Assembly (NCBI GenBank): GCA_965221655.1
Contig: OZ244906.1
Coordinates: forward strand, 2,608,009-2,672,008
DNA length: 64,000 nt
Source: a bacterium
Lineage (GTDB): Bacteria > UBA8248
Direction: 5' to 3'
Made by a program: the position numbers and the translations under genes. Of this stretch, positions 13,820-55,191 are shown one piece after another (within the stretch, counting starts at the first letter, position 1; the number at the start of each line of letters is the position of its first letter). Below the pieces are notes generated by a model that saw nothing but the letters and a program-made list of their open reading frames with translations, ran no database searches and had not been told where the DNA came from.

Positions 13820-13879
13820 GCACGACTTTTCTTGCGTTCGCCGCGCGTTGGACCAAAGGGCGGTGATGGAGCGTATGCC

Positions 13880-14623
13880 GTGGAACTGAAGGACAGGGTG
13901 TTCGTCATCACGGGTGCGGCGCGGGGTATCGGCGTAGCGGCCGCGCGCAGGTTCGCGGGGCAGGGCGCGCACGTGGCTGCCCTGGACGTGGATGAGGAGG
14001 CGTTGCGCAGCCTTGAGGCTGAATCGGCACGGGCTATTCTCGGCGTGCGTGCGGACGTTTCGGGCGCACATGGCGTGGAGAGCGCCTTCGATGCGGTGAT
14101 GCGTGCTTTCGGCGGCGTGGACGTGCTCGTCAACTGTGCGGTGGTTCGCGGCAACGGCCCCCTGGCCGAGGTCGAGGAGGCCACCATCGACGCGGCCCTG
14201 GCCGTGGGTTTGAAGGGCGTCATCCTTTGCGCACGGCGCGCGGCGCGGGAGATGGCCGGGCGCGGCGGCGGGGCCATCGTCAACATGTCGAGTTTCTACG
14301 CCCACACGCCGGCGAAAGAGCGTGTGGTCTACGCAGCCGTCAAGGCGGGCGTCGAGGGTCTTACGCGCGCACTGGCGGTCGAACTGGCCGAAGACGGCGT
14401 ACGTGTAAACGCCGTCGCGGCGGGTCCAGTGCTCACCAAACTGCGCGAGGAGCGCGGAGACGCTGACCCGCGCACCATGGCGGAGCGCTACCGCAAATCT
14501 CCCATGGGCCGGTTCGGCCGGGTCGAGGAAGTACTCGACGCCATCGAATACCTGGCGACGCCGCGCTCTTCCTACATGACGGGCCACGTGCTGATGCTCG
14601 ACGGCGGGCTGACCATCGTGTGA
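13880..14623 (+). CDS. SDR family oxidoreductase
   Basis: ITGAARGIGVAAA glycine motif and the S..Y..K catalytic triad (YAAVK). The track ORF begins at a TTG at 13832. The GTG at 13880 gives a standard SDR N-terminus. Confidence 0.8.
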   Translation: MELKDRVFVITGAARGIGVAAARRFAGQGAHVAALDVDEEALRSLEAESARAILGVRADVSGAHGVESAFDAVMRAFGGVDVLVNCAVVRGNGPLAEVEEATIDAALAVGLKGVILCARRAAREMAGRGGGAIVNMSSFYAHTPAKERVVYAAVKAGVEGLTRALAVELAEDGVRVNAVAAGPVLTKLREERGDADPRTMAERYRKSPMGRFGRVEEVLDAIEYLATPRSSYMTGHVLMLDGGLTIV

Positions 14624-14661: not shown

Positions 14662-15100
14662 TCAGGGACACCAGGGCTTGCGTCGTCTGCCCTTGTAGGG
14701 CCGCCCGTGGCCCGTGTCGATCATGATGCGGGCGAAGTCGCGTCCGTCGGCAAGTTTCACGTTCGCGCCCACGCGCTTGCCGAATTTGTCGTCCTTCACG
14801 CCGGTGAGGAGCACCTTGCCCCTCTTGCCCACGAGTTGCTTCGCGTAATCGCGCGCTGCCTCGCCGCGTCGGCGCTCCGCAGCGCACTTCGCCCCTCCGA
14901 TTTCGGGGCTGTCCATATGCAGCACGCGCACGTTGACGCGCACCGTCTGGCGCACCCATATCTTCGCTTCCACGTGGAGGGTGTCGCCGTCGATCACCCG
15001 CAGCACGGTTGCGGGCACGCGCAACTCGGCCGCGGCGGGCGTCGCGAACACCGACGCGGCGAACGCGAGAACGAGACACGCTGACTGAGGAGAAGAAAAC
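14662..15100 (-). CDS. thermonuclease (SNase-like) family secreted protein
   Basis: Staphylococcal-nuclease-like motifs (RVIDGDTL, DSPE, and conserved Arg and Glu) preceded by a signal-peptide-like segment. The start (TTG near 15100) is uncertain. Confidence 0.6.
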
Positions 15101-15152
15101 GGCGTACCCAAGGGTTTTCCCTTCTTGCAGATTCCAAAAGTTATAATTCTAT

Positions 15153-15181
15153 ATTTTATGGTTTTATAAAAAAATCTGCAA
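15153..15181 (-). promoter_or_regulatory. sigma70-like promoter for the thermonuclease gene (-35 TTGCAG, 17-bp spacer, -10 TAAAAT on the minus strand)
   Basis: Read directly in an AT-rich spacer. The reverse complement reads TTGCAG-N17-TAAAAT. Confidence 0.4.
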
Positions 15182-15467
15182 TTGATGAAGACAGGCGCTT
15201 CGTCTCGGCGCCGCCCCCGACCGCCTTTGGGCTTCACCCCGAACCGGGAGTCGAAAAGAGACCCGCGATGGAAAAACGCGTGGACACCGCCCTGGGTTGC
15301 GGCTTAAAGCAAGAATTTCTGCATGGGAAGCGGTTTGTGCGTCGTACAAGCCTTCGGGTGGGTCGGCGCGGCCCACGTGAAATGGATGGGGATGGGGTGC
15401 GTTGTGCGGCGTTCCGCTCGGCCGGGGTGGGCTTCTCCGTTTCTCGGGGAGGTGCGCGAGGTAGAGG

Positions 15468-15564
15468 TGGCGGGAACGCGTGGGAGTCGAACCCACCGAC
15501 GAAGTGATTAGCCCCGTCCACTGGATTTGAAGTCCAGGCGGCACACCGGCACCGATGCGCTCCC
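15468..15564 (-). tRNA. selC: tRNA-Sec (selenocysteine tRNA), anticodon UCA
   Basis: The minus-strand sequence GGGAGCGCATCGGTGCCGGTGTGCCGCCTGGACTTCAAATCCAGTGGACGGGGCTAATCACTTCGTCGGTGGGTTCGACTCCCACGCGTTCCCGCCA is 97 nt. It has an 8-bp acceptor stem (GGGAGCGC/GCGTTCCC), a CUUCAAA anticodon loop with anticodon UCA, a long variable arm, a 5-bp T stem with loop TTCGACT, and an encoded CCA. The CTGGACTTCAAATCCAG and GGTTCGACTCC blocks are nearly identical to E. coli selC. Confidence 0.85.
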
Positions 15565-15694
15565 GCGAGAAGGATACACCGCACGGGGCTGGTTCTGAAA
15601 GTGTGCCGGGCGTCTCGCCCGCGTGGTGCTTGTCCTGTGGGCGAGAAAACCCTACAACGAGACGCAACGCATTTTCACCAAAGGAGACGAAGGG

Positions 15695-16597
15695 ATGACG
15701 CAACGTGTGGGCATCGTGGGCATGGGGCTGATGGGCCAGGCCTTCATCAAGAACATGCGCGAGACGGGCTTCGATATACAGGGCTTCGACGTGGACCCCG
15801 CGCGCATGGACGATTTGCGCGCACAGGGCGGCGCGCCCGTCGCCACGCCCGCCGAGGCGGCCGGGGGCGTGAACTTCGTGATCACCTCTCTGCCCAACAG
15901 CACCATCGCCCGGGAGGCGACCCTGGGGGCGGGGGGCATCGCCGAGGGGGCGAAGGAGGGGCTGTACCACCTCGACACGACGACCTCGCGCCCCGAGGAT
16001 TCGGTGCGCCTCGCCGAAGACCTCTCCCGCCACGGAATCCGCTTTCTCGATTCCGCCGTGAGTGGCACGAGCACGATGGCCGTCCAAAAGGACCTGGTGG
16101 TCGTCGCGGGTGGGGAGGCGGAGGATTTCGACGCCTGCCGCGCCGTCTTCGCGGGCTTCAGCCGCGCGGCGTACTACATGGGACCCGTGGGCTCGGGGGC
16201 GCGCACGAAGCTGGTCATCAACATGATTCTGGCGGGCAATCGCCTGGCCCTGGCCGAGGGGCTGCTGCTCGGCACGAAGGTGGGCCTCGAGATGGATACC
16301 CTCCTCGAAGTTCTCAAGGACGGGGCGTGCTCTTCAAAGACGATGATCGACAAAGGCCCCAAGATGATTTATGGCGACTACTCCAAGCAGGGCCAGGTGA
16401 AGACCTCGCTCAAGGATTCGCGCCTGATGATCGAGCAGGGCCGCCTCCACGGCTCTCCCATGCTGATGACGAACCTCTGGTCCCAGGTCGTGCAGATGGC
16501 CTACGAGCGCGGCTACGCGGAGGAGGATACCGTCGCCTTCTACGAAGTCCTGCGCGAGATGGCGGGCCTGCCCCCGCGGATTGAGGGTGGAGGGTGA
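15695..16597 (+). CDS. NAD(P)-dependent beta-hydroxyacid dehydrogenase (HIBADH family)
   Basis: The RBS AAGGAGACGAAGGG precedes an ATG. VGIVGMGLMG motif, DSAVSG catalytic region, and a C-terminal helical domain. Confidence 0.85.
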   Translation: MTQRVGIVGMGLMGQAFIKNMRETGFDIQGFDVDPARMDDLRAQGGAPVATPAEAAGGVNFVITSLPNSTIAREATLGAGGIAEGAKEGLYHLDTTTSRPEDSVRLAEDLSRHGIRFLDSAVSGTSTMAVQKDLVVVAGGEAEDFDACRAVFAGFSRAAYYMGPVGSGARTKLVINMILAGNRLALAEGLLLGTKVGLEMDTLLEVLKDGACSSKTMIDKGPKMIYGDYSKQGQVKTSLKDSRLMIEQGRLHGSPMLMTNLWSQVVQMAYERGYAEEDTVAFYEVLREMAGLPPRIEGGG

Positions 16598-16662
16598 TGG
16601 TGGGGAGGATGTTGATGGGAGCAACTCGGTTAGTGGGAATGTCCGTATGGAGAGTTTCCTGC

Positions 16663-17313
16663 CTATGTTGGCTCCGATGGGAGATTTTCTGCGAATTCGT
16701 ATCCTTCTTTTGTCTCCCATGCCATGCCGTTGTAAGTCACACTCAGTAGTTTCGCGGTAGGAACGAAGCACTCGAGATCGATAGTTTTAATATCTCCGTA
16801 AAGGGTTTCTCGAAATTTTTCGTCGAGACAAGGAAACTTCAAACTCCGGGGCTCGCCAAAATTTTCTTGTGAGCATTGACAATCTTTGAGGTAGTTACGG
16901 CATTTATGACATCTCATGTATTTGTTTATCGATTTCCAAGCATTCTCGTTGGGAGTGTATAGCAGATAAAGTCGAAAAGGCTGCACATTCGCGTGCCCAA
17001 ACCCATTCCGAAATATGACTGTGCGTTCGATAGCTTCATGAATGGTTTTTTCTTCTTTCCATTGTGGCCAAATATCCAGGAAACAATTTTTCAAGTCTCC
17101 AAAACTGAATTTGCTGAGTTCCAGCCTTCTCCGTGCGAAATCCTCGGGGAAACTTCCGTTCTTAACTGCCGCGTTGTATCGTCTGCGCATGTCCCTCCCT
17201 CCTTCACGAAGTACTACTAAATCGCGCATAGAACTTTCGATACAACGAAGGAACATGAAACATTCACCAGCCGATATTAGATGGGGGTCGTCCTGCACCA
17301 TTTTGCTTTTCAT
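16663..17313 (-). CDS. hypothetical protein with a HEPN-like Rx4H motif (RNGFGH) and a C-terminal Cys cluster, encoded in a low-GC islet
   Basis: 216-aa ORF in a roughly 40%-GC stretch flanked by about 67%-GC DNA. Contains R-N-G-F-G-H (an Rx4-6H HEPN signature) and CHKCRNYLKDCQC. Confidence 0.5.
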   Translation of the reverse strand: MKSKMVQDDPHLISAGECFMFLRCIESSMRDLVVLREGGRDMRRRYNAAVKNGSFPEDFARRRLELSKFSFGDLKNCFLDIWPQWKEEKTIHEAIERTVIFRNGFGHANVQPFRLYLLYTPNENAWKSINKYMRCHKCRNYLKDCQCSQENFGEPRSLKFPCLDEKFRETLYGDIKTIDLECFVPTAKLLSVTYNGMAWETKEGYEFAENLPSEPT

Positions 17314-17368
17314 TGTGTGTCATCTCTTGCTTTTTGCGTCCCGATGCAGTTCGGATTCACCCCCCCCC

Positions 17369-18316
17369 TCACCCCTCCCCGCGCAGTGCAGGTGGGTAGG
17401 GGGCGAAGTAGGTCTGGGCTCCGAGGTAAGGGGAGCCCGGGTGCGCTATCCATTCGCGCAAGGTGTCGAACGCAATCTGCGGCGAAGCACCCCCCGCGCG
17501 GTATTCCTCCAGTGCGGCGTGAAAGCGTTTTTTCTCACCTGACGTGATTTTGTCGGAAAAATGCCCCGCCGCGTGTGTTAAGGCGTTGACGTGGGCCGCG
17601 CGCGTGGGCGGGCGCGAAAGCGCACGCAAGAGTGCGTTTTCGTAATCTGCGGCGAGCGGGCCGAACGCGCGTTTGGCGTGGTTGGCCGCGATGCGCCCCA
17701 TCTCGCGCATGGTCTCCTGGTGGTAGGCCAGGAAGAGCAGCTTGTTCTCCGTATGGTAGCGCGCGAGACGGGCGGGCTCTTTCGATTTCCTGACTGCGCG
17801 GAAGCCCGCAAGAGCGAAGAGTTTGGTGAGAAAGTGTGCGCGCGCCTCCGCTTCGTTCAGCTGTGCCTCATCCGTTACGGCGAGGGTGCCGAAGCGCGCG
17901 AGGACGTTTTCGGCGAACAGGCCCGCTCCCAGGGCGAGGGGAGTTTCCGAGGCGGGGCCGGCGAACGCCTTGGTGTCGGTGATTCCGCATGAGGGGGATT
18001 TCGACTTGAGGATGAAGCCGTCCACCTCGCTCAGCCCGTCCAGAAACGCATCGGCGAAAGCGTGCATCGCGTGCGTGAGGTCTTTTTGCGTGGAGGGTTG
18101 CAAGAGGGTTTTCCGCCCCTCCCGCATACAGATGCGGATGGGGTCACGCGGCGTGCCCAGGCCGATCTCCACTTCGGGACACACGGGCTGGAAGCGCACG
18201 TAGGGTCGGAGGCGATTCAGAAAGGGAGAGGCGATGCCCGCCCCGTCGTAACGGCATGCGTCGAAGCCCAGACACCGACTCGCGACGACGCAGGGGCGGG
18301 GGAACTCTCGGGTCAA
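17369..18316 (-). CDS. DUF523/DUF1722 fusion protein (YbgA / TudS-like family)
   Basis: N-terminal CLGFDACRYDG pattern typical of DUF523 (the 2-thiouracil desulfurase-like Fe-S domain) followed by a DUF1722-like helical domain. Confidence 0.7.
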   Translation of the reverse strand: MTREFPRPCVVASRCLGFDACRYDGAGIASPFLNRLRPYVRFQPVCPEVEIGLGTPRDPIRICMREGRKTLLQPSTQKDLTHAMHAFADAFLDGLSEVDGFILKSKSPSCGITDTKAFAGPASETPLALGAGLFAENVLARFGTLAVTDEAQLNEAEARAHFLTKLFALAGFRAVRKSKEPARLARYHTENKLLFLAYHQETMREMGRIAANHAKRAFGPLAADYENALLRALSRPPTRAAHVNALTHAAGHFSDKITSGEKKRFHAALEEYRAGGASPQIAFDTLREWIAHPGSPYLGAQTYFAPYPPALRGEG

Positions 18317-20332: not shown

Positions 20333-20719
20333 GTGTGGTTTATGATTGTTCGCGCCATGAATATGCCGCGCGAGAAGCTGGAGAAAATTATCGAGAGCGC
20401 AGCGCGCAGAGGCGAGCCCCTCTCGCTGGCGGGAGAAGCGCTTGCCTGGGCGAACCTGGGTGGGCGCGATCTCACAAACGCCGACCTCAGGGGGGCGAGC
20501 CTCGTGCGCGCGAACCTCGTCGGGGCCGATTTGTCCGGCGCGGACCTAAGCGAGGCGGACTTGCGAAACGCGGACCTCGACGAGGCCGTGCTCAGGGATG
20601 CCGTCTTGCGCGACGCCGACGTCGCGGGCGCGAGCTTTCGGGAGGCGGACCTGACGGGCGCGGACATCGAGGGGGCGAATTTCGACGAAGCCATCATCGA
20701 GGGTGCGCGTTTCCTGTGA
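20333..20719 (+). CDS. pentapeptide-repeat protein
   Basis: About 15 consecutive A(D/N)LxG/A pentapeptide repeats (ADLRGASLVRANLVGADLSGADLSEADL...). The start codon is uncertain: GTG at 20333 or ATG at 20357/20363. Confidence 0.7.
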   Translation: MWFMIVRAMNMPREKLEKIIESAARRGEPLSLAGEALAWANLGGRDLTNADLRGASLVRANLVGADLSGADLSEADLRNADLDEAVLRDAVLRDADVAGASFREADLTGADIEGANFDEAIIEGARFL

Positions 20720-20737
20720 AGGGTGGGTGGCGCGCGC

Positions 20738-21913
20738 TCAGGAGGCGTTGCACGTGAGAAGCGCTGCCATCTTCCGCAGGCCGATGGCCTCTATGCCGCT
20801 TGCCGCGGGGTAGTGCTCCTCGCTCACATGGACGAGAAAGGCGCGCTCGGGCTCTATATCCTCGAGAGCGCTGTAGAAGCCCCTCGCGGGGGCGGCAGAG
20901 AGACTCCGCTTGATCTCCACGGCCCACGGCCCGCTCGTCCCGGGAATCTCGAGCACCAGGTCGATCTCCGCTCCTCCCGCCGTGCGGTAGAAGCTCGCCC
21001 GGGTGCGAGGGGGGGCGACGGCGAGCAGGTTCTCGATTACGAAGCCCTCCCAGCTTGCGCCGACCACCGGATGACCCGCCAGTGCGTCGTAGTTCCCCAC
21101 GCCGAGCAGGGCGTGGAGGAGGCCGCTGTCGCGCACGTATACCTTGGGCGACTTGACGAGCCGCTTTTTCACGTTCGCGTGGAAGGGCGGCAGCCGCCGG
21201 GCGAGGAGGAGGCCTACCAGCAGATCAACGTATCGCGTCGCCGTCGGAGCTCTCATGGAGAGATTCGCGGCAAGCTTCGATGCGTTGAGAATCCCGCCCT
21301 GGTAGTGGGCCAACATGGTCCAGAACCGATCCAGCGTCTCCGCCGGTATGCGCGGACCCAACTGCGGAACGTCGCGCTCGAGATAGGTGCGAATGAAATT
21401 GCGCCGAAAGGCGAGGCTGTCGTCGTTCTCGGCCAGGAAACTGTCCGGAAAGCCGCCGCGCACCCATAGGTTCGTCATGTCGCGAGCGTCGAGAGCTGCC
21501 TCTCCTGCGTCGAAGGGGTTGAGCTCCACGAACTCTATGCGCCCGGCGAGGGTCTCGCCCGACTGCCGCAGCAAATCGGGCGAAGCCGACCCCAGAATCA
21601 GGAAGCGACCCCTGCCCTTTCCCTGCCTTCTCCCCCGGTCGATGAGGCCGCGTAACTCCTGGAACAACTCCGGCACGCGGTGAATCTCGTCGAGGATAAC
21701 GAGACGGTCCGCAAACTCCTCGAGATACAGGGCGGGCTCGACGAGCTTGTTCCGGTCCGCACGGGACTCGAGGTCCAGATAGATTGCATTGGTGCTCTTG
21801 GCGATCTCCAGAGCGAGCGTTGTCTTGCCGACCTGGCGCGGACCGAGCAGGGCGACGGCGGCTTGGCGGCCGAGCGCATCGCGTACGTTTTTATGTGCGC
21901 GTCGAGTAATCAT
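20738..21913 (-). CDS. AAA+ ATPase with a DUF4143 C-terminal domain
   Basis: Walker A GPRQVGKTT, Walker B LVILDEIH, then a C-terminal region typical of the widespread ATP-binding protein / DUF4143 family. Confidence 0.75.
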   Translation of the reverse strand: MITRRAHKNVRDALGRQAAVALLGPRQVGKTTLALEIAKSTNAIYLDLESRADRNKLVEPALYLEEFADRLVILDEIHRVPELFQELRGLIDRGRRQGKGRGRFLILGSASPDLLRQSGETLAGRIEFVELNPFDAGEAALDARDMTNLWVRGGFPDSFLAENDDSLAFRRNFIRTYLERDVPQLGPRIPAETLDRFWTMLAHYQGGILNASKLAANLSMRAPTATRYVDLLVGLLLARRLPPFHANVKKRLVKSPKVYVRDSGLLHALLGVGNYDALAGHPVVGASWEGFVIENLLAVAPPRTRASFYRTAGGAEIDLVLEIPGTSGPWAVEIKRSLSAAPARGFYSALEDIEPERAFLVHVSEEHYPAASGIEAIGLRKMAALLTCNAS

Positions 21914-21989
21914 CCATGTAAATTAAATCTTATATTTTTAATTTGCAAGGATAAAATCAATTTAACTGCGTAAATTAAAAATTATATTT
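21908..21989. repeat. two about 30-bp AT-rich direct repeats (GTAAATTAAATCTTATATTTTTAATTTGCA and GTAAATTAAAAATTATATTTTTAATTTGCA) separated by a 22-bp spacer, in a low-GC intergenic region
   Basis: Read directly: the copies at 21908..21937 and 21960..21989 differ at 2 positions. The surrounding 190 bp are under 35% GC. Confidence 0.6.
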
Positions 21990-22118
21990 TTAATTTGCAT
22001 AGTTAATGTGAATAAAAAGAGAAAATACTGGTAAGGAAAATCTTCGCCCCGAGGCCTAAGAGGTACCGCGTTGAGCCGTTTCGGGTACTTCCTCTTTCTT
22101 GCGGGACGTCGCGGTCGC

Positions 22119-23720
22119 CTAGTCGAATACCGTATCGTCGTAGTGGGCGGCGTCCACCACCGCCTCGATGACGGTCGGCCCCTGGGCGTCGAAGGCCTCC
22201 TTGAGCGCGCGCGCCAACTCCTCGGGCGTTCGCGCACCTACGGCGGGAACGCCGAAGTAGTGTGCGGGCGGATCGCGGTAAGCCTCGGCCTGGAGTTCGG
22301 TTCCGTAGCGCCCGAAGGAGCGCCTGTCCTGCTTGACCTGGATGAGCGAGAGCCACCTGTCGTCCAGGACGACGATGGGGATGGAAAGCCCCATGCGCTT
22401 GGCGACCGCCACCTCGCCGCACGTCATCTGGAAGCAGCCGTCTCCGATGAGCGCGACGACGGGCTTTTCGGGGTGCGCGAGCTTCGCGGCGATGGCGCCG
22501 GGAAGGCCGAACCCCATGGAGGACCACCCGTTCGTGATCAGGAAGGTGCATGGCTCGTGGACGTCCCACTGGCTCGCGATCTGGTGGGTGTGCGCTCCCA
22601 CGTCGAAGGAGAGGATGCCCTCTTTGGGCGTCGCTTCGCGCACCACGTCGATTGCCTCGTGAGCGGCGAAATGGGGGCTCGGGGGACGCAGGGCCTTCTG
22701 GAATTTCGCTTTGTGGCGCAAGGCGGTGTCGGAGGGCCATTCGTAGGGGCCGGGGGTAAAGTCGTTCATGCGCTTGAGAGAAGCGTCCAGATCGCCGACC
22801 ACTTCGTGGGCTATCCGGACGGAGGAGTCCGCGTCCACGGGATCGATGTCGACGCTCACGAGGGGGACGTCCTTGATCCACTGCTCGTATTCTACCTCGA
22901 CTACGTCATAGCCGATTCCGACGATGAGGTCGGCACTCTGCAAGAACTCCCTCTGCACCTGCCGCTTTCCGCGCTCAATACAGCCGATGGAGAGTTGATG
23001 GTCCTCGTCGATCATCCCCTTCGCCATGGTGGTCGAGGCGAAGGGCAGTTTGTATCTCTCCACGAAATCGCGCAGGAGCGCGGGGTTTTCCATGCGCATG
23101 GTTGTTGACCCGAGAACGGCGACCGGCCGCTTGGCGCGTTGCAAAAGTTTTTCGAGTTCTTCGAACGCGGCATCGGGTGCGGGGCGCGGCCGTCTGCCCT
23201 GGGGAATCGGGGGAACCTCCTCGGTAGCGGGCGCGAGGGAGACGTCCTCGGGCAAGTCGAGGTGTACGGGCCCGTGCGGTTCGCTCAGAGCGAGACCCAG
23301 GGCTTCTTCGAGCACGGGGCCGACGCGGCCCTTTCTCAGGGGGAGGCTCGCCTTGCTGATGGGGCGGTACAGGGTGTGGTGGTCGATGTACATCTGGATG
23401 CGGCGTCCCAGTTGGTGGGTGTGCAGATTGCAGGTAAGCGCAATCAAGGGAGAGCGATCCAGATAGGCGTTGCCCACTCCGGTCGAGAGGTTCGTGGCAC
23501 CGGGACCCAGCGTGGCGATGCAAAAACCCGGTGCGCCCGTGAGGCGGCCCATCACGTCGGCGGCGAAGCTGGCGGAACCCTCATGCGCGGTGAGGACGAA
23601 CGTGATGCCCCCCTTGCGCATGGCTTCGAGCATGGGCAGCACGTTTCCGCTCGGAATACCGAAGCAGTGGGTGACTCCCGCTTCTTTCATGGTCTTGACG
23701 AACAGGTCCGCGTTGTTCAT
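22119..23720 (-). CDS. thiamine pyrophosphate-dependent enzyme, acetolactate synthase-like (large-subunit type)
   Basis: N-terminal TPP_enzyme_N domain, a central domain, and a C-terminal TPP-binding motif GDGCFQM...N. 533 aa. Confidence 0.85.
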   Translation of the reverse strand: MNNADLFVKTMKEAGVTHCFGIPSGNVLPMLEAMRKGGITFVLTAHEGSASFAADVMGRLTGAPGFCIATLGPGATNLSTGVGNAYLDRSPLIALTCNLHTHQLGRRIQMYIDHHTLYRPISKASLPLRKGRVGPVLEEALGLALSEPHGPVHLDLPEDVSLAPATEEVPPIPQGRRPRPAPDAAFEELEKLLQRAKRPVAVLGSTTMRMENPALLRDFVERYKLPFASTTMAKGMIDEDHQLSIGCIERGKRQVQREFLQSADLIVGIGYDVVEVEYEQWIKDVPLVSVDIDPVDADSSVRIAHEVVGDLDASLKRMNDFTPGPYEWPSDTALRHKAKFQKALRPPSPHFAAHEAIDVVREATPKEGILSFDVGAHTHQIASQWDVHEPCTFLITNGWSSMGFGLPGAIAAKLAHPEKPVVALIGDGCFQMTCGEVAVAKRMGLSIPIVVLDDRWLSLIQVKQDRRSFGRYGTELQAEAYRDPPAHYFGVPAVGARTPEELARALKEAFDAQGPTVIEAVVDAAHYDDTVFD

Positions 23721-54622: not shown

Positions 54623-55191
54623 ACCCCGCGCACGGCGTTCTACCTTCCAAGCACGTGGTCCATCTGTCCGTTGTTTTTTCCTGATTTATAGCAAAATGAG
54701 GGAGTTTATGGATGATTCGTAAACTCCTTGTTTTTCTTGTGTATTGCTGCTGCGCGGCCCATGCCGGCGAGGGGCTGTTTTGCTTTGGGAGTGAAGGCAA
54801 AAGATGATTGATCAAAAAAGATATGACGAACTTACCGTGGCAATGGCGTCCCGCCCCGGTACGGATTCTGTAAGCAAGCGGTTCTTCGTCTTTGAGGTTT
54901 CGGTGTCTGGGTGAGCGTTCGTCTGTGGATTTTAACGCTGCTCGATTTCTCGTATTGTACACTGCATCGTACAACTCTGGCGACATGCGATATGCCCGGC
55001 CTGTTTTCGCGAATCCTCTAAGGTAGGCGAGCGATTTTTCTCGTACACCATTGCATTTCGCCTCCCCCGGAACCCGAGCGTGTCTAAAGGGGAATACACC
55101 TGCTTTGTGGTAAAATCGTGTGATTCGCCGCACCGAATCGGTAGAATGTATGGTTCACCGCCGGTGCTCTTTTATGGAGAGGGGCAGGGCA

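Follow-up and report, generated by a model that had tools for sequence, protein, structure and literature searches.

A single foreign gene in a defence hotspot of a Nitrospinota-like bacterium encodes an unannotated protein family with likely HEPN affinity

A low-GC islet in a variable slot

The window, the whole 64-kb stretch of DNA analysed here, contains one AT-rich gene inserted between two native genes. The gene is a 216-aa ORF on the minus strand (16663–17313) with an ATG start; it encodes a HEPN-like protein and makes up the entire low-GC islet, as a preliminary description of the locus had proposed. A 55-nt spacer (17314–17368, minus strand) separates it from the co-oriented DUF523/DUF1722 gene upstream (2-thiouracil desulfurase-like; 17369–18316, minus strand), and a 65-nt spacer (16598–16662, minus strand) runs from its stop codon to that of a convergent NAD_binding_2/NAD_binding_11 dehydrogenase gene (15623–16597, plus strand). 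A tRNA-Sec gene (15468–15564, minus strand; identified by ARAGORN, 74.8 bits in Rfam), which is a conserved backbone feature, lies about 1.03 kb from the islet, in agreement with the distance of roughly 1 kb given earlier. The first 12 nt of the upstream spacer (17357–17368, GGGGGGGGGTGA on the gene strand) are nearly a tandem copy of the final 12 nt of the DUF1722 gene (17369–17380, GGGGAGGGGTGA). No sigma-70-like promoter was found in the upstream spacer of the window, which we counted against the gene encoding a defence RNase, and the downstream spacer has no terminator-like hairpin. Both sequence elements described earlier can be read in the translation, namely RNGFGH at residues 102–107 (codons 16993–17010, minus strand), a candidate HEPN Rx4H catalytic motif, and the Cys cluster CHKCRNYLKDCQC at residues 135–147 (codons 16873–16911, minus strand), a putative zinc knuckle with the spacing C135-x2-C138-x6-C145-x-C147.

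The GC content of the ORF is 0.441 (0.49, 0.38, and 0.45 at codon positions 1, 2, and 3) and that of positions 16600–17360 is 0.452, against 0.641 for the whole window and 0.656 and 0.635 for the two 5-kb flanks. Among 1267 sliding segments of 651 bp (mean 0.641, sd 0.032), the ORF is the minimum, approximately 6 sd below the mean. At a 200-bp scale, the 64 kb contain just three patches below 50% GC, of which the islet is the largest, and the drop is restricted to the ORF, with the 100-bp bins alongside already at 61–62%. The compositional jump is real, although the figures first reported for it (about 40% versus about 67%) were slightly too extreme, the measured values being 44–45% and 64–66%.

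The backbone genes around the islet are syntenic and 78–90% identical in three relatives (L024, L025, and L026, all ENA contigs; no strain- or species-level relative was among the genomes found). In these genomes, the interval with the 3HCDH-DUF1722 genes on one side and the NAD_binding_2 dehydrogenase gene (87–89% identical to that of the window) on the other is a slot with variable content. The HEPN-like gene is missing from all three orthologous slots. L024 carries AbiLi and AbiLii instead (E = 5e-91 and 7e-12), L026 carries a helicase-nuclease of the PDC-S37/Hhe type (E = 1e-254 and 2e-104), and L025 carries four other ORFs, one of which resembles the MBL-fold accessory proteins of DRT and Lamassu. 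The cargo of the window, L024, and L025 starts directly past the stop codon of the DUF523/DUF1722 gene. One conserved gene pair bracketing differing defence cargo in related genomes is the hallmark of a defence hotspot, and the slot is an integrase-less, lineage-specific hotspot of this kind in a Nitrospinota-like genome.

That the islet consists of one accessory gene acquired horizontally, as its composition had suggested, is well supported: relatives hold other cargo at the exact position, rather than the equally AT-rich orthologues that a conserved native gene would have left there, and the homologues are scattered and AT-richer than their hosts at 17 of 17 loci. Moreover, pairwise identities among homologues do not track host taxonomy, and the genomic context of the closest homologue (64% identity) is unrelated. 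Vertical inheritance of a native gene kept AT-rich by functional constraint is therefore very improbable; the lower GC in every carrier genome would allow for an intrinsic compositional constraint, but such a gene should not be absent from the slots of three relatives with flanks this similar, nor should its similarities depart from host taxonomy.

A search of the islet borders for direct repeats, suggested at the outset, gave none that is convincing, the sole bracketing repeat being 19 nt long, 79% identical, and located within the flanking coding regions. We rejected a transposon-like element or a homing endonuclease, as there are no convincing terminal inverted repeats or target-site duplications and no family-wide conservation of the flanks. 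A role for tRNA-Sec, whose proximity the preliminary description had pointed out, is not supported, and we rejected it as an integration site: its place in the backbone is unchanged in the relatives, the conserved dehydrogenase gene lies between, and there is no integrase. JGI metagenomes probed with a neighbouring protein for the empty site returned no close relative.

The protein family and its relation to HEPN domains

The islet protein belongs to a rare family, with 84 representatives among 1.84 billion proteins. Seventy-seven homologues share 47–65% identity with it at conserved length, and R102, N103, H107, and all four cysteines are invariant among 41 members of the clade. With dN/dS values of 0.12–0.24, the family is under purifying selection and represents a real gene; the ORF of the window is intact and full length and keeps every invariant residue. 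Degraded copies do occur, with a nonsense codon at locus L004 and frameshifts at L011 and in an E. coli plasmid copy. At about 20% identity, a wider superfamily can be aligned in which only G16, R102, and H107 are invariant; in two sets of 40 and 35 divergent members, R and H remain invariant and the residue right after R is predominantly N or D. The superfamily includes a minimal 180-aa branch without the four cysteines, against which hhalign places the Cys segment as an insert, so that the Cys4 cluster is a putative zinc knuckle inserted past the motif-bearing helix. Such a knuckle would presumably bind zinc. The AF2 model of the 216-aa protein is of high confidence (pLDDT 91.5), as is a second AF2 model (96.9), and the predicted architecture comprises an all-alpha core with R-N-x3-H ending its third helix, then the Cys4 insert, and a beta-hairpin at the C-terminus.

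HEPN domains are recognized by a conserved Rx4-6H motif with a polar residue (N, D, or H) directly after R, and by an all-alpha core in which the motif closes helix 3 and is followed by a loop ahead of helix 4 (PMC3710099). In the islet protein the motif reads R102-N103-x3-H107 and, at the level of secondary structure, forms the C-terminal end of a helix spanning residues 89–107 (81–98 in the minimal branch), after which comes a loop. HEPN domains also have a second conserved acidic residue close to the active site, in their N-terminal half. Candidates for it are two helix-1 residues conserved in the clade (E17 in at least 90% of members and D31 invariantly), neither of which is invariant in the wider superfamily. 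One feature was counted against HEPN, namely that the large insert sits after the motif helix, the usual place for an insert in HEPN domains being between helices 2 and 3.

Searched directly, the window protein has no match in Pfam, PADLOC, NCBIfam, or PDB sequences, and a profile of the superfamily alignment run against a 5.8-billion-protein database returned the same family alone, without annotated relatives. Distant members give weak Pfam matches to HEPN_MAE_28990, Swt1, RiboL-PSP, Apea, and pEK499_p136 (12–18 bits versus cutoffs of 24–28). These five HEPN families account for 15 of the 31 member-family matches in Pfam, all sub-threshold and all covering the motif region, and the strongest score against a curated HEPN family is 18.4 bits versus a cutoff of 24.4. 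HEPN_Apea is the best, still sub-threshold, Pfam match of two minimal-branch members (E = 0.003 and 0.09). Sub-threshold matches in PADLOC fall on four HEPN models, RTasHEPN in 8 of 40 members (best E = 9e-4), Cas13c, Csm6, and CARF-HEPN, while NCBIfam and PHROGs, used as a noise control, gave unrelated singletons only. None of the curated HEPN models in Pfam and the other collections reaches its threshold. When aligned by hhalign with a 22-sequence DUF4145 alignment, the family places motif on motif without significance (P = 0.01, probability 4%), and the same register, again not significant, was obtained with a single DUF4145 sequence. Foldseek searches with the two high-confidence models against PDB and BFVD found no HEPN structure (best E 0.35–1.4, TM about 0.2), nor did profile searches of PDB sequences with alignments A1, A2, and A3 find a HEPN chain.

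Because the motif stands at the end of a long helix and weak matches fall on nine different HEPN models, we consider HEPN membership likely, if short of proven, despite the null fold searches. The HEPN assignment made initially from the motif thus holds in part: the motif is invariant and well placed and the weak matches converge, but no threshold is passed and Foldseek is silent. Placement in a non-HEPN family, which would have contradicted that assignment, was not encountered in the homology searches.

The alternative that the protein is not HEPN appears unlikely. It would then be a novel helical zinc-binding protein with a convergent R-N-x3-H, serving as a non-catalytic accessory of R-M or BREX systems (a regulator, specificity factor, adaptor, or anti-defence protein). 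The sub-threshold level of every HEPN match and the generic helical bundles that are all the fold searches return are compatible with it, as are the nucleic-acid binding suggested by the Cys4 cluster and the frequent position of the gene directly downstream of, and co-oriented with, large R-M enzymes, much like an accessory subunit. However, G16, R102, and H107 being the only invariant residues of the superfamily is the pattern expected for catalytic residues, no family other than HEPN recurs among the weak matches, and the gene is also found without an R-M neighbour, in the window among other places.

Genomic neighbourhoods and the search for a partner

The family is spread over at least six bacterial lineages, including Alphaproteobacteria, Binatia, Dehalococcoidia/Chloroflexota, Rhodothermales, and MAGs of Deltaproteobacteria. 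We surveyed the neighbourhoods of 18 loci, the window and 17 homologue loci. In two phyla, the HEPN-like gene lies directly downstream of an MmeI-family R-M enzyme; between these two loci, the MmeI proteins are 72% and the HEPN-like proteins 60% identical, and the intergenic DNA is shared. Another homologue is located inside a BREX operon, and other neighbours comprise an Eco57I-like methylase, CBASS, PD-T7-5, a HEC-01 ATPase, GmrSD, and elements with serine recombinases or transposases. Relatives from the minimal branch are found on an E. coli IncF plasmid, where the adjacent gene is annotated 'anti-phage transmembrane ATPase', in a prophage as a reverse-oriented 'moron' insert in the terminase-portal interval, and, at L028, inside an R-M plus RES-Xre island with a 4-bp overlap with a DUF4145 (HEPN) gene. 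The idea of an abortive-infection or toxin module, voiced in the preliminary description, fits these contexts well in respect of a defence role. Counted against such a role were about 5 of the 18 loci, whose neighbours are housekeeping or unknown genes only, and the absence of the HEPN-like family from PADLOC and from IMG/VR viral contigs. For the zinc-knuckle clade, no phage or plasmid carriage was found in INPHARED or IMG/VR, and plasmid carriage was seen only for a minimal-branch copy, frameshifted, on IncF plasmids of E. coli.

The gene stands alone. In the window its neighbours, across the two short spacers (55 bp upstream and 65 bp downstream), are the DUF523/DUF1722 gene and the NAD-binding dehydrogenase gene, and no MNT gene adjoins it, either there or at the 17 homologue loci. 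Across the 18 loci, no neighbouring gene is conserved. Among all ORFs of 40–140 aa within 700 bp at these loci, only an RHH gene recurs, at two or three Chloroflexota loci, where it accompanies a serine recombinase (77% identity from locus to locus), with the HEPN-like gene on differing sides of it. Comparison of the flanking non-coding DNA between loci revealed no conservation. A hidden RNA antitoxin was rejected, as there is no Rfam match (gathering threshold or E ≤ 1) and no repeat array, and the spacers fold like shuffled sequence; the tandem repeats are just two 2-copy G-rich units at gene junctions. For the window, this agrees with the earlier statement that no cognate antitoxin or MNT gene is adjacent.

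Proposed function and comparison with known systems

Taken as a whole, we find it rather probable that this hotspot-borne foreign gene belongs to an unannotated family, most likely a new HEPN ribonuclease branch, and acts as a latent abortive-infection RNase without an antitoxin. The gene product is most likely a stand-alone enzyme. By analogy with characterized HEPN enzymes, a dimer would bring the R...H motifs of its two subunits together in a single composite RNase site that needs no metal, and auto-inhibition or the oligomeric state may keep the enzyme latent in uninfected cells in place of a dedicated antitoxin. A phage-derived cue, or the loss of a neighbouring R-M or BREX function, could switch it on, and the active enzyme would cut cellular or viral RNA and thereby abort the infection. 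The commonest target of solo HEPN defences is the tRNA anticodon loop. The zinc knuckle may serve as an element that binds nucleic acid or a signal. More tentatively, the family could be an unrecognised single-gene anti-phage system, that is, a minimal (about 215 aa) antitoxin-free HEPN RNase with a zinc-knuckle sensor insert, passed as an AT-rich one-gene cassette among unrelated bacteria of shared, probably marine-sponge, communities and possibly serving as a back-up effector for R-M or BREX that fires, for example, when phage anti-restriction disables them.

Two further explanations concern the role of the gene rather than its fold. The protein might be a toxin with an antitoxin that has escaped recognition, whether a small RNA (type III or AbiF-like), a micro-ORF overlapping the gene, or an unlinked gene; its main role would then be addiction or stabilisation of mobile DNA instead of phage defence. 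HEPN toxins are commonly neutralised by MNT, RnlB, or RNA antitoxins (as for AbiF), an RHH 'antitoxin-like' gene adjoins the homologue at L006 and L017, and the L028 gene overlaps its DUF4145 neighbour; yet none of the neighbours is conserved over the 18 loci, the RHH gene belongs with the serine recombinase, the non-coding flanks are not conserved between loci, and the spacers of the window are short and free of repeats, Rfam matches, and unusual folding. We regard this alternative as quite unlikely. It is also improbable, in our estimate, that the window carries a hitchhiking gene, silent or in decay, left over from a larger island of defence genes or mobile element that formerly filled the slot. 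The lack of promoter- and terminator-like signals, a GC3 of 0.45 far from that of the host, the decay of other copies (L004, L011, and the E. coli plasmid), and the turnover of slot cargo would suit a hitchhiker, but the ORF retains all invariant residues in a family under purifying selection, and read-through from the co-oriented native gene 55 nt upstream could express it.

If confirmed, the abortive-infection RNase would add another family of antitoxin-free HEPN abortive-infection nucleases, unusually small and with a zinc-binding insert, and would offer a compact test case for how antitoxin-free toxins are silenced. The locus is an instance of a defence hotspot without an integrase, in a Nitrospinota-like lineage that has been little studied, and the family exemplifies how a single defence gene, and a two-gene unit of MmeI and a HEPN-like gene, may cross phyla within shared communities. 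Current ideas stand: that defence islands harbour solo HEPN genes was a prediction made in 2013, which experiments have since borne out. The islet family is a further one of a known type and not a new type of system.

Several known systems resemble the islet gene in part. Zinc modules within or fused to HEPN domains have precedent in the CXorf38-type proteins of animals (an inserted Zn ribbon) and in EC042_2821 (HEPN plus ZnR) (PMC3710099 Table 1); CXorf38 is a eukaryotic multidomain protein, and the resemblance is architectural only. HepT of the HepT/MntA pair (HEPN-MNT, type VII toxin-antitoxin) resembles the proposed enzyme in being a small HEPN RNase toxin with Rx4H and a dimeric active site, but the adjacent MNT nucleotidyltransferase antitoxin that defines this system is missing at 18 of 18 loci. 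The solo Abi-type HEPN proteins (Abi2/AbiD/AbiF, AbiJ, AbiU2, MAE_28990, pEK499_p136, and Swt1-like bacterial forms) are small and helical with R[NDH]x3-5H, and are often encoded alone in R-M or defence operons, on plasmids, or in prophages (PMC3710099 Table 1). The weak Pfam matches of the islet family go to these families, and since none of them rises above threshold, the islet family is a separate and much rarer lineage. AbiF, in addition, has an RNA antitoxin, whereas none is detectable at the islet.

ApeA is an antitoxin-free single-gene HEPN defence, a latent RNase that is activated by infection and cleaves tRNA anticodons to abort it (bioRxiv 10.64898/2026.01.26.701840). Like the islet family, it is encoded by a stand-alone gene in defence and R-M neighbourhoods (PMC3710099 Table 1). 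ApeA differs in carrying a large beta-rich domain (about 300 aa) at its N-terminus, in forming doughnut-shaped oligomers, and in having a deoxydinucleotide-binding pocket, while the islet protein is mostly helical, has only 216 aa and a Cys4 insert, and belongs to a family in which HEPN_Apea matches are sub-threshold and confined to 2 of 40 members. DARNA (PD-T7-3), another antitoxin-free single-gene HEPN tRNase, is activated by ssDNA bound by phage SSB (10.64898/2026.02.22.705581). Its N-terminal HEPN domain of about 160 aa with Rx4H, its abortive-infection outcome, and its catalytic sites formed by HEPN dimerisation are similar to what we propose, whereas its 300-aa C-terminal ssDNA-sensing domain and dodecameric assembly are not; no sequence similarity of the islet family to DARNA was detected, and the PADLOC models gave no such match. 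PrrC and RloC, anticodon nucleases that guard type I R-M systems and are encoded within R-M loci, differ from the islet protein in that an ABC-ATPase domain precedes their C-terminal HEPN domain, and EcoprrI physically masks PrrC. The islet protein has no ATPase domain, and its family is linked to R-M at some loci only, the window not being one of them. The likeness here lies in the logic, in which a latent HEPN RNase within or next to an R-M system acts as a back-up once restriction is disabled, and at several loci the islet family is positioned in keeping with this logic, co-oriented and directly downstream of MmeI, Eco57I-like, and BREX genes.

The low-GC islet and its slot in related genomes

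The islet contains a single, intact ORF on the minus strand (16663–17313), which encodes the 216-aa HEPN-like protein. Its GC content of 0.441, compared with 0.641 over all 64 kb and with 0.656 and 0.635 in the 5-kb flanks, is the minimum among 1267 sliding windows of 651 bp, approximately 6 standard deviations under the mean. The compositional dip noted in the preliminary description was thus confirmed, although its values of about 40% against 67% were measured nearer 44–45% against 64–66%. The dip is limited to the ORF, with the neighbouring 100-bp bins back at 61–62%, and the spacers to the adjacent genes measure only 55 nt upstream and 65 nt downstream. At the 200-bp scale, three patches below 50% GC occur in the 64 kb, of which this islet is by far the largest; another lies at 54651–54900 (minimum 0.46 in 200-bp bins). 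The RNGFGH motif and the C-terminal Cys cluster (CHKCRNYLKDCQC) previously ascribed to the ORF were both found, at residues 102–107 and 135–147, respectively. The left islet junction (17357–17380) bears a 12-nt tandem near-duplication: the DUF1722 gene closes with GGGGAGGGGTGA (final codons and stop), and its near-copy GGGGGGGGGTGA comes next. Recombination may have left this as a scar, or it may have arisen by slippage. The convergent dehydrogenase gene across the islet likewise has a G-rich end (...GGAGGGTGA).

The native gene upstream, DUF523/DUF1722, has its best relatives at 57–65% identity, several of them labelled Nitrospinae, and three of the genomes with such relatives (L024, L025, and L026) have the backbone of the window, namely a TPP enzyme, 3-hydroxyacyl-CoA dehydrogenase, DUF523/DUF1722, a variable slot, a convergent NAD-binding dehydrogenase, tRNA-Sec, and a short-chain dehydrogenase. 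While the flanking proteins are 78–90% identical between the window and these relatives, the slot content is different in each of the four: the HEPN-like gene in the window, AbiLi and AbiLii in L024 (E = 5e-91 and 7e-12), a 1754-aa helicase-nuclease of the PDC-S37/Hhe type in L026 (E = 1e-254 and 2e-104), and in L025 four other ORFs, one of which is similar to the MBL-fold accessory proteins known from DRT and Lamassu. The DUF1722 stop codon is followed directly by the cargo in the window, L024, and L025. The slot is an integrase-less defence hotspot, and the horizontal acquisition proposed earlier is borne out by the other cargo occupying it in the relatives. A native, conserved AT-rich gene, which the preliminary description had named as a scenario that would overturn its reading, is excluded for practical purposes, given that the cargo differs among relatives sharing the backbone. 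The distance to tRNA-Sec was measured as 1.03 kb, in agreement with the roughly 1 kb first reported; in the relatives this tRNA gene holds the same position past the conserved dehydrogenase gene and is therefore part of the backbone, so that its nearness to the islet is incidental.

Other parts of the region also vary. DUF523/DUF1722 (17369–18316) is only 60–62% identical to its orthologues in the three relatives, compared with 78–90% for the surrounding backbone proteins, indicating that this hotspot-border gene evolves much faster than its neighbours. Between adh_short (13832–14623) and tRNA-Sec (15468–15564), an 844-bp gap on the 3' side of the tRNA gene is occupied by a minus-strand 191-aa ORF (14662–15237), which seems to have a signal peptide and weakly matches Staphylococcal nuclease (SNase; E = 0.0045); the same gap measures 54–55 bp in L024 and L025, and tblastn found no homologue of the ORF in L024, L025, or L026. 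We count this ORF as another lineage-specific insertion, and it truly adjoins the tRNA gene, which the HEPN-like gene does not. Another variable region (20333–22150) lies between the 3HCDH and TPP-enzyme genes. It holds a pentapeptide-repeat-like ORF (20333–20719) common to the window, L024, and L025, a 391-aa ORF (20738–21913) without a tblastn match in L024 or L026 and 78% identical to the AAA_14/DUF4143 ATPase of L025, and an intergenic patch (21801–22150) with GC down to 32%.

A rare protein family and the HEPN question

The window protein has no match in Pfam, PADLOC, NCBIfam, or PDB sequences. Its 77 homologues at 47–65% identity are nearly all 211–218 aa long and none is annotated; an exhaustive HMM search among 1.84 billion cluster representatives returned 84 family members, so the family is rare. 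The same search surfaced a distant branch of about 180–190 aa (the minimal branch), which is homologous to the clade of the window over the full length (hhalign probability 99.8%) and has neither the Cys cluster nor the C-terminal beta-hairpin. Invariant in the clade of the window (the Zn clade) are R102, N103, H107, C135, C138, C145, C147, and an N-terminal AGECFM block; across the superfamily, at about 20% identity, only G16, R102, and H107 are. The family is unannotated and rare, missing from four domain and defence libraries, and distinguished by an unusual predicted zinc-knuckle insert and by a notable spread across phyla with AT-richness throughout.

According to Anantharaman et al. (2013, PMC3710099), HEPN domains have an all-alpha core of four helices and carry an Rx4-6H motif where helix 3 ends and passes into the next loop, its R being followed by a polar residue; an N-terminal acidic residue is often conserved as well. 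In favour of the earlier HEPN assignment, confident AlphaFold2 models of the window protein and a minimal-branch member (pLDDT 91.5 and 96.9) both have the motif precisely where a long helix reaches its C-terminal end and a loop begins. When 40 superfamily members were scanned singly, the only Pfam families matched by more than one member were MAE_28990, Swt1, RiboL-PSP, Apea, and pEK499_p136, all HEPN, which account for 15 of 31 member-family matches and cover the motif-bearing helix in every one of the 15. The PADLOC RTasHEPN model was matched by 8 of the 40 (best E = 9e-4) and the Cas13c, Csm6, and CARF-HEPN models by one member each; as a noise control, NCBIfam and PHROGs gave unrelated singletons only. 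Against the assignment, none of the HEPN profile matches reaches its curated threshold, and no HEPN was found by Foldseek against PDB and BFVD or by PDB sequence profile searches. An hhalign comparison with a purpose-built DUF4145 (HEPN) alignment did put motif on motif, but at only P = 0.01 and a probability of 4%. Because two of the tests spoke for membership, one against, and two gave no clear outcome, we consider it probable that the window protein belongs to the HEPN superfamily. The Cys4 cluster is an insert placed after the motif helix, and we infer that it binds zinc; CXorf38 and EC042_2821 offer precedents for HEPN domains with an inserted or fused zinc-binding module (PMC3710099).

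Hosts and neighbourhoods of the homologues

Homologues occur in MAGs labelled Rhodospirillales/Alphaproteobacteria, Binatia, Dehalococcoidia/Chloroflexota, Rhodothermales, and Deltaproteobacteria, with pairwise identities out of step with host taxonomy. Their GC content is below that of the flanks in 17 of 17 loci, by 3 to 25 points under every host. One possible source of this bias is a rapidly turning-over donor pool of low GC; another is selection that keeps a toxic gene silenced or weakly expressed. Several carriers and relatives of the window share samples ERZ25766727, ERZ26167216, and ERZ25069580, and one MAG, SB0666_bin_1, is named in a series that has served for sponge-associated symbionts (PMC7883664); a marine-sponge habitat for the family, read mostly from names, is plausible.

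No family-wide conserved neighbour or flanking non-coding sequence was found across the loci. The neighbourhoods consist mostly of defence and mobility genes, with about five loci having housekeeping or uncharacterised neighbours only. In a Binatia and a Rhodothermales MAG, an MmeI-family R-M gene lies directly upstream of the HEPN-like gene (L003, 7004–10645; L008, 7090–10630). The MmeI proteins are 72% and the HEPN-like proteins 60% identical, and about 45 nt of intergenic DNA upstream of the HEPN-like gene are 87% identical, indicating that a two-gene unit crossed phyla. CBASS cyclase (SMODS) and ThiF/E1-like genes come next in the Rhodothermales locus, and an Eco57I-like methylase adjoins one homologue. 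In L014 (2211–11555), the HEPN-like gene is inserted in a BREX operon between BrxC/PglY and an SLFN_AlbA_2/HATPase_c_4 gene with a PglX-like methylase; a DUF4238 gene lies downstream, as also near the E. coli plasmid copy. Further neighbours include PD-T7-5, HEC-01 ATPase, GmrSD, a transposase, tyrosine integrases, and a large serine recombinase. In two Chloroflexota loci (L006, 197–2745; L017, 6001–8569), the HEPN-like gene is accompanied by an RHH gene and a large serine recombinase of 529 aa (77% identical between the loci); it is located between the two in L006 but upstream of the pair in L017. The RHH gene was rejected as an antitoxin partner, since it goes with the recombinase while the side of the HEPN-like gene varies. 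No Zn-clade member was found in phage genomes or IMG/VR contigs.

The minimal-branch contexts follow the same pattern. On conjugative IncF plasmids from dog isolates (E. coli pHB42-2, NZ_CP104079.1, 5944–6528), a frameshift splits the homologue into 72- and 103-aa ORFs, only the second of which is annotated in RefSeq, as a hypothetical protein. An 'anti-phage transmembrane ATPase' of 1273 aa is encoded just downstream. This homologue is present in 5 of 5426 complete E. coli genomes, all of them the HB42 strain and its transconjugants and all plasmid-borne. The member at L028 (3674–4683) has a 4-bp overlap with the stop of a DUF4145 (HEPN family) gene, pointing to an operon of two HEPN genes. 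It adjoins an R-M module (ResIII helicase and N6_N4 methylase) and a RES-Xre toxin-antitoxin pair. A third member (L029, 3076–3675) is a reverse-oriented insert ('moron') of a lambda-like prophage, flanked by the large terminase (GpA) and gpW/portal genes.

Candidate function and comparison with known systems

The preliminary description saw no adjacent MNT or antitoxin gene, and this held at the loci examined, where no MNT gene or recurring small ORF was found; the islet spacers contain no repeat array, match no Rfam family at thresholds as loose as E ≤ 1, and show nothing unusual in RNA folding. A toxin whose antitoxin escaped detection is accordingly quite unlikely. A non-HEPN accessory protein of R-M or BREX systems, in whose company some homologues stand, is unlikely too. 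Decaying copies do exist (a stop codon at a conserved Trp in L004, several frameshifts in L011, and the frameshifted E. coli plasmid copy), and dN/dS values of 0.12–0.24 for informative pairs indicate a real gene under purifying selection; a silent remnant in the genome of the window, where the ORF is intact, is improbable.

Most likely, the gene encodes a HEPN RNase that works alone, stays latent, and serves as an effector of abortive infection. Two subunits would dimerise to form a composite R/H site, the putative zinc knuckle may serve as the sensing element, and the activated enzyme would cleave RNA, possibly as a guard of R-M systems. Solo HEPN-like genes within defence islands are of a kind that the field already expects, and the proposed RNase fits the solo HEPNs reported by Anantharaman et al. 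from within R-M operons (PMC3710099). It also fits ApeA (bioRxiv 10.64898/2026.01.26.701840) and DARNA (10.64898/2026.02.22.705581), single-gene HEPN systems in which an infection cue frees the enzyme to cut the anticodon loops of tRNAs.
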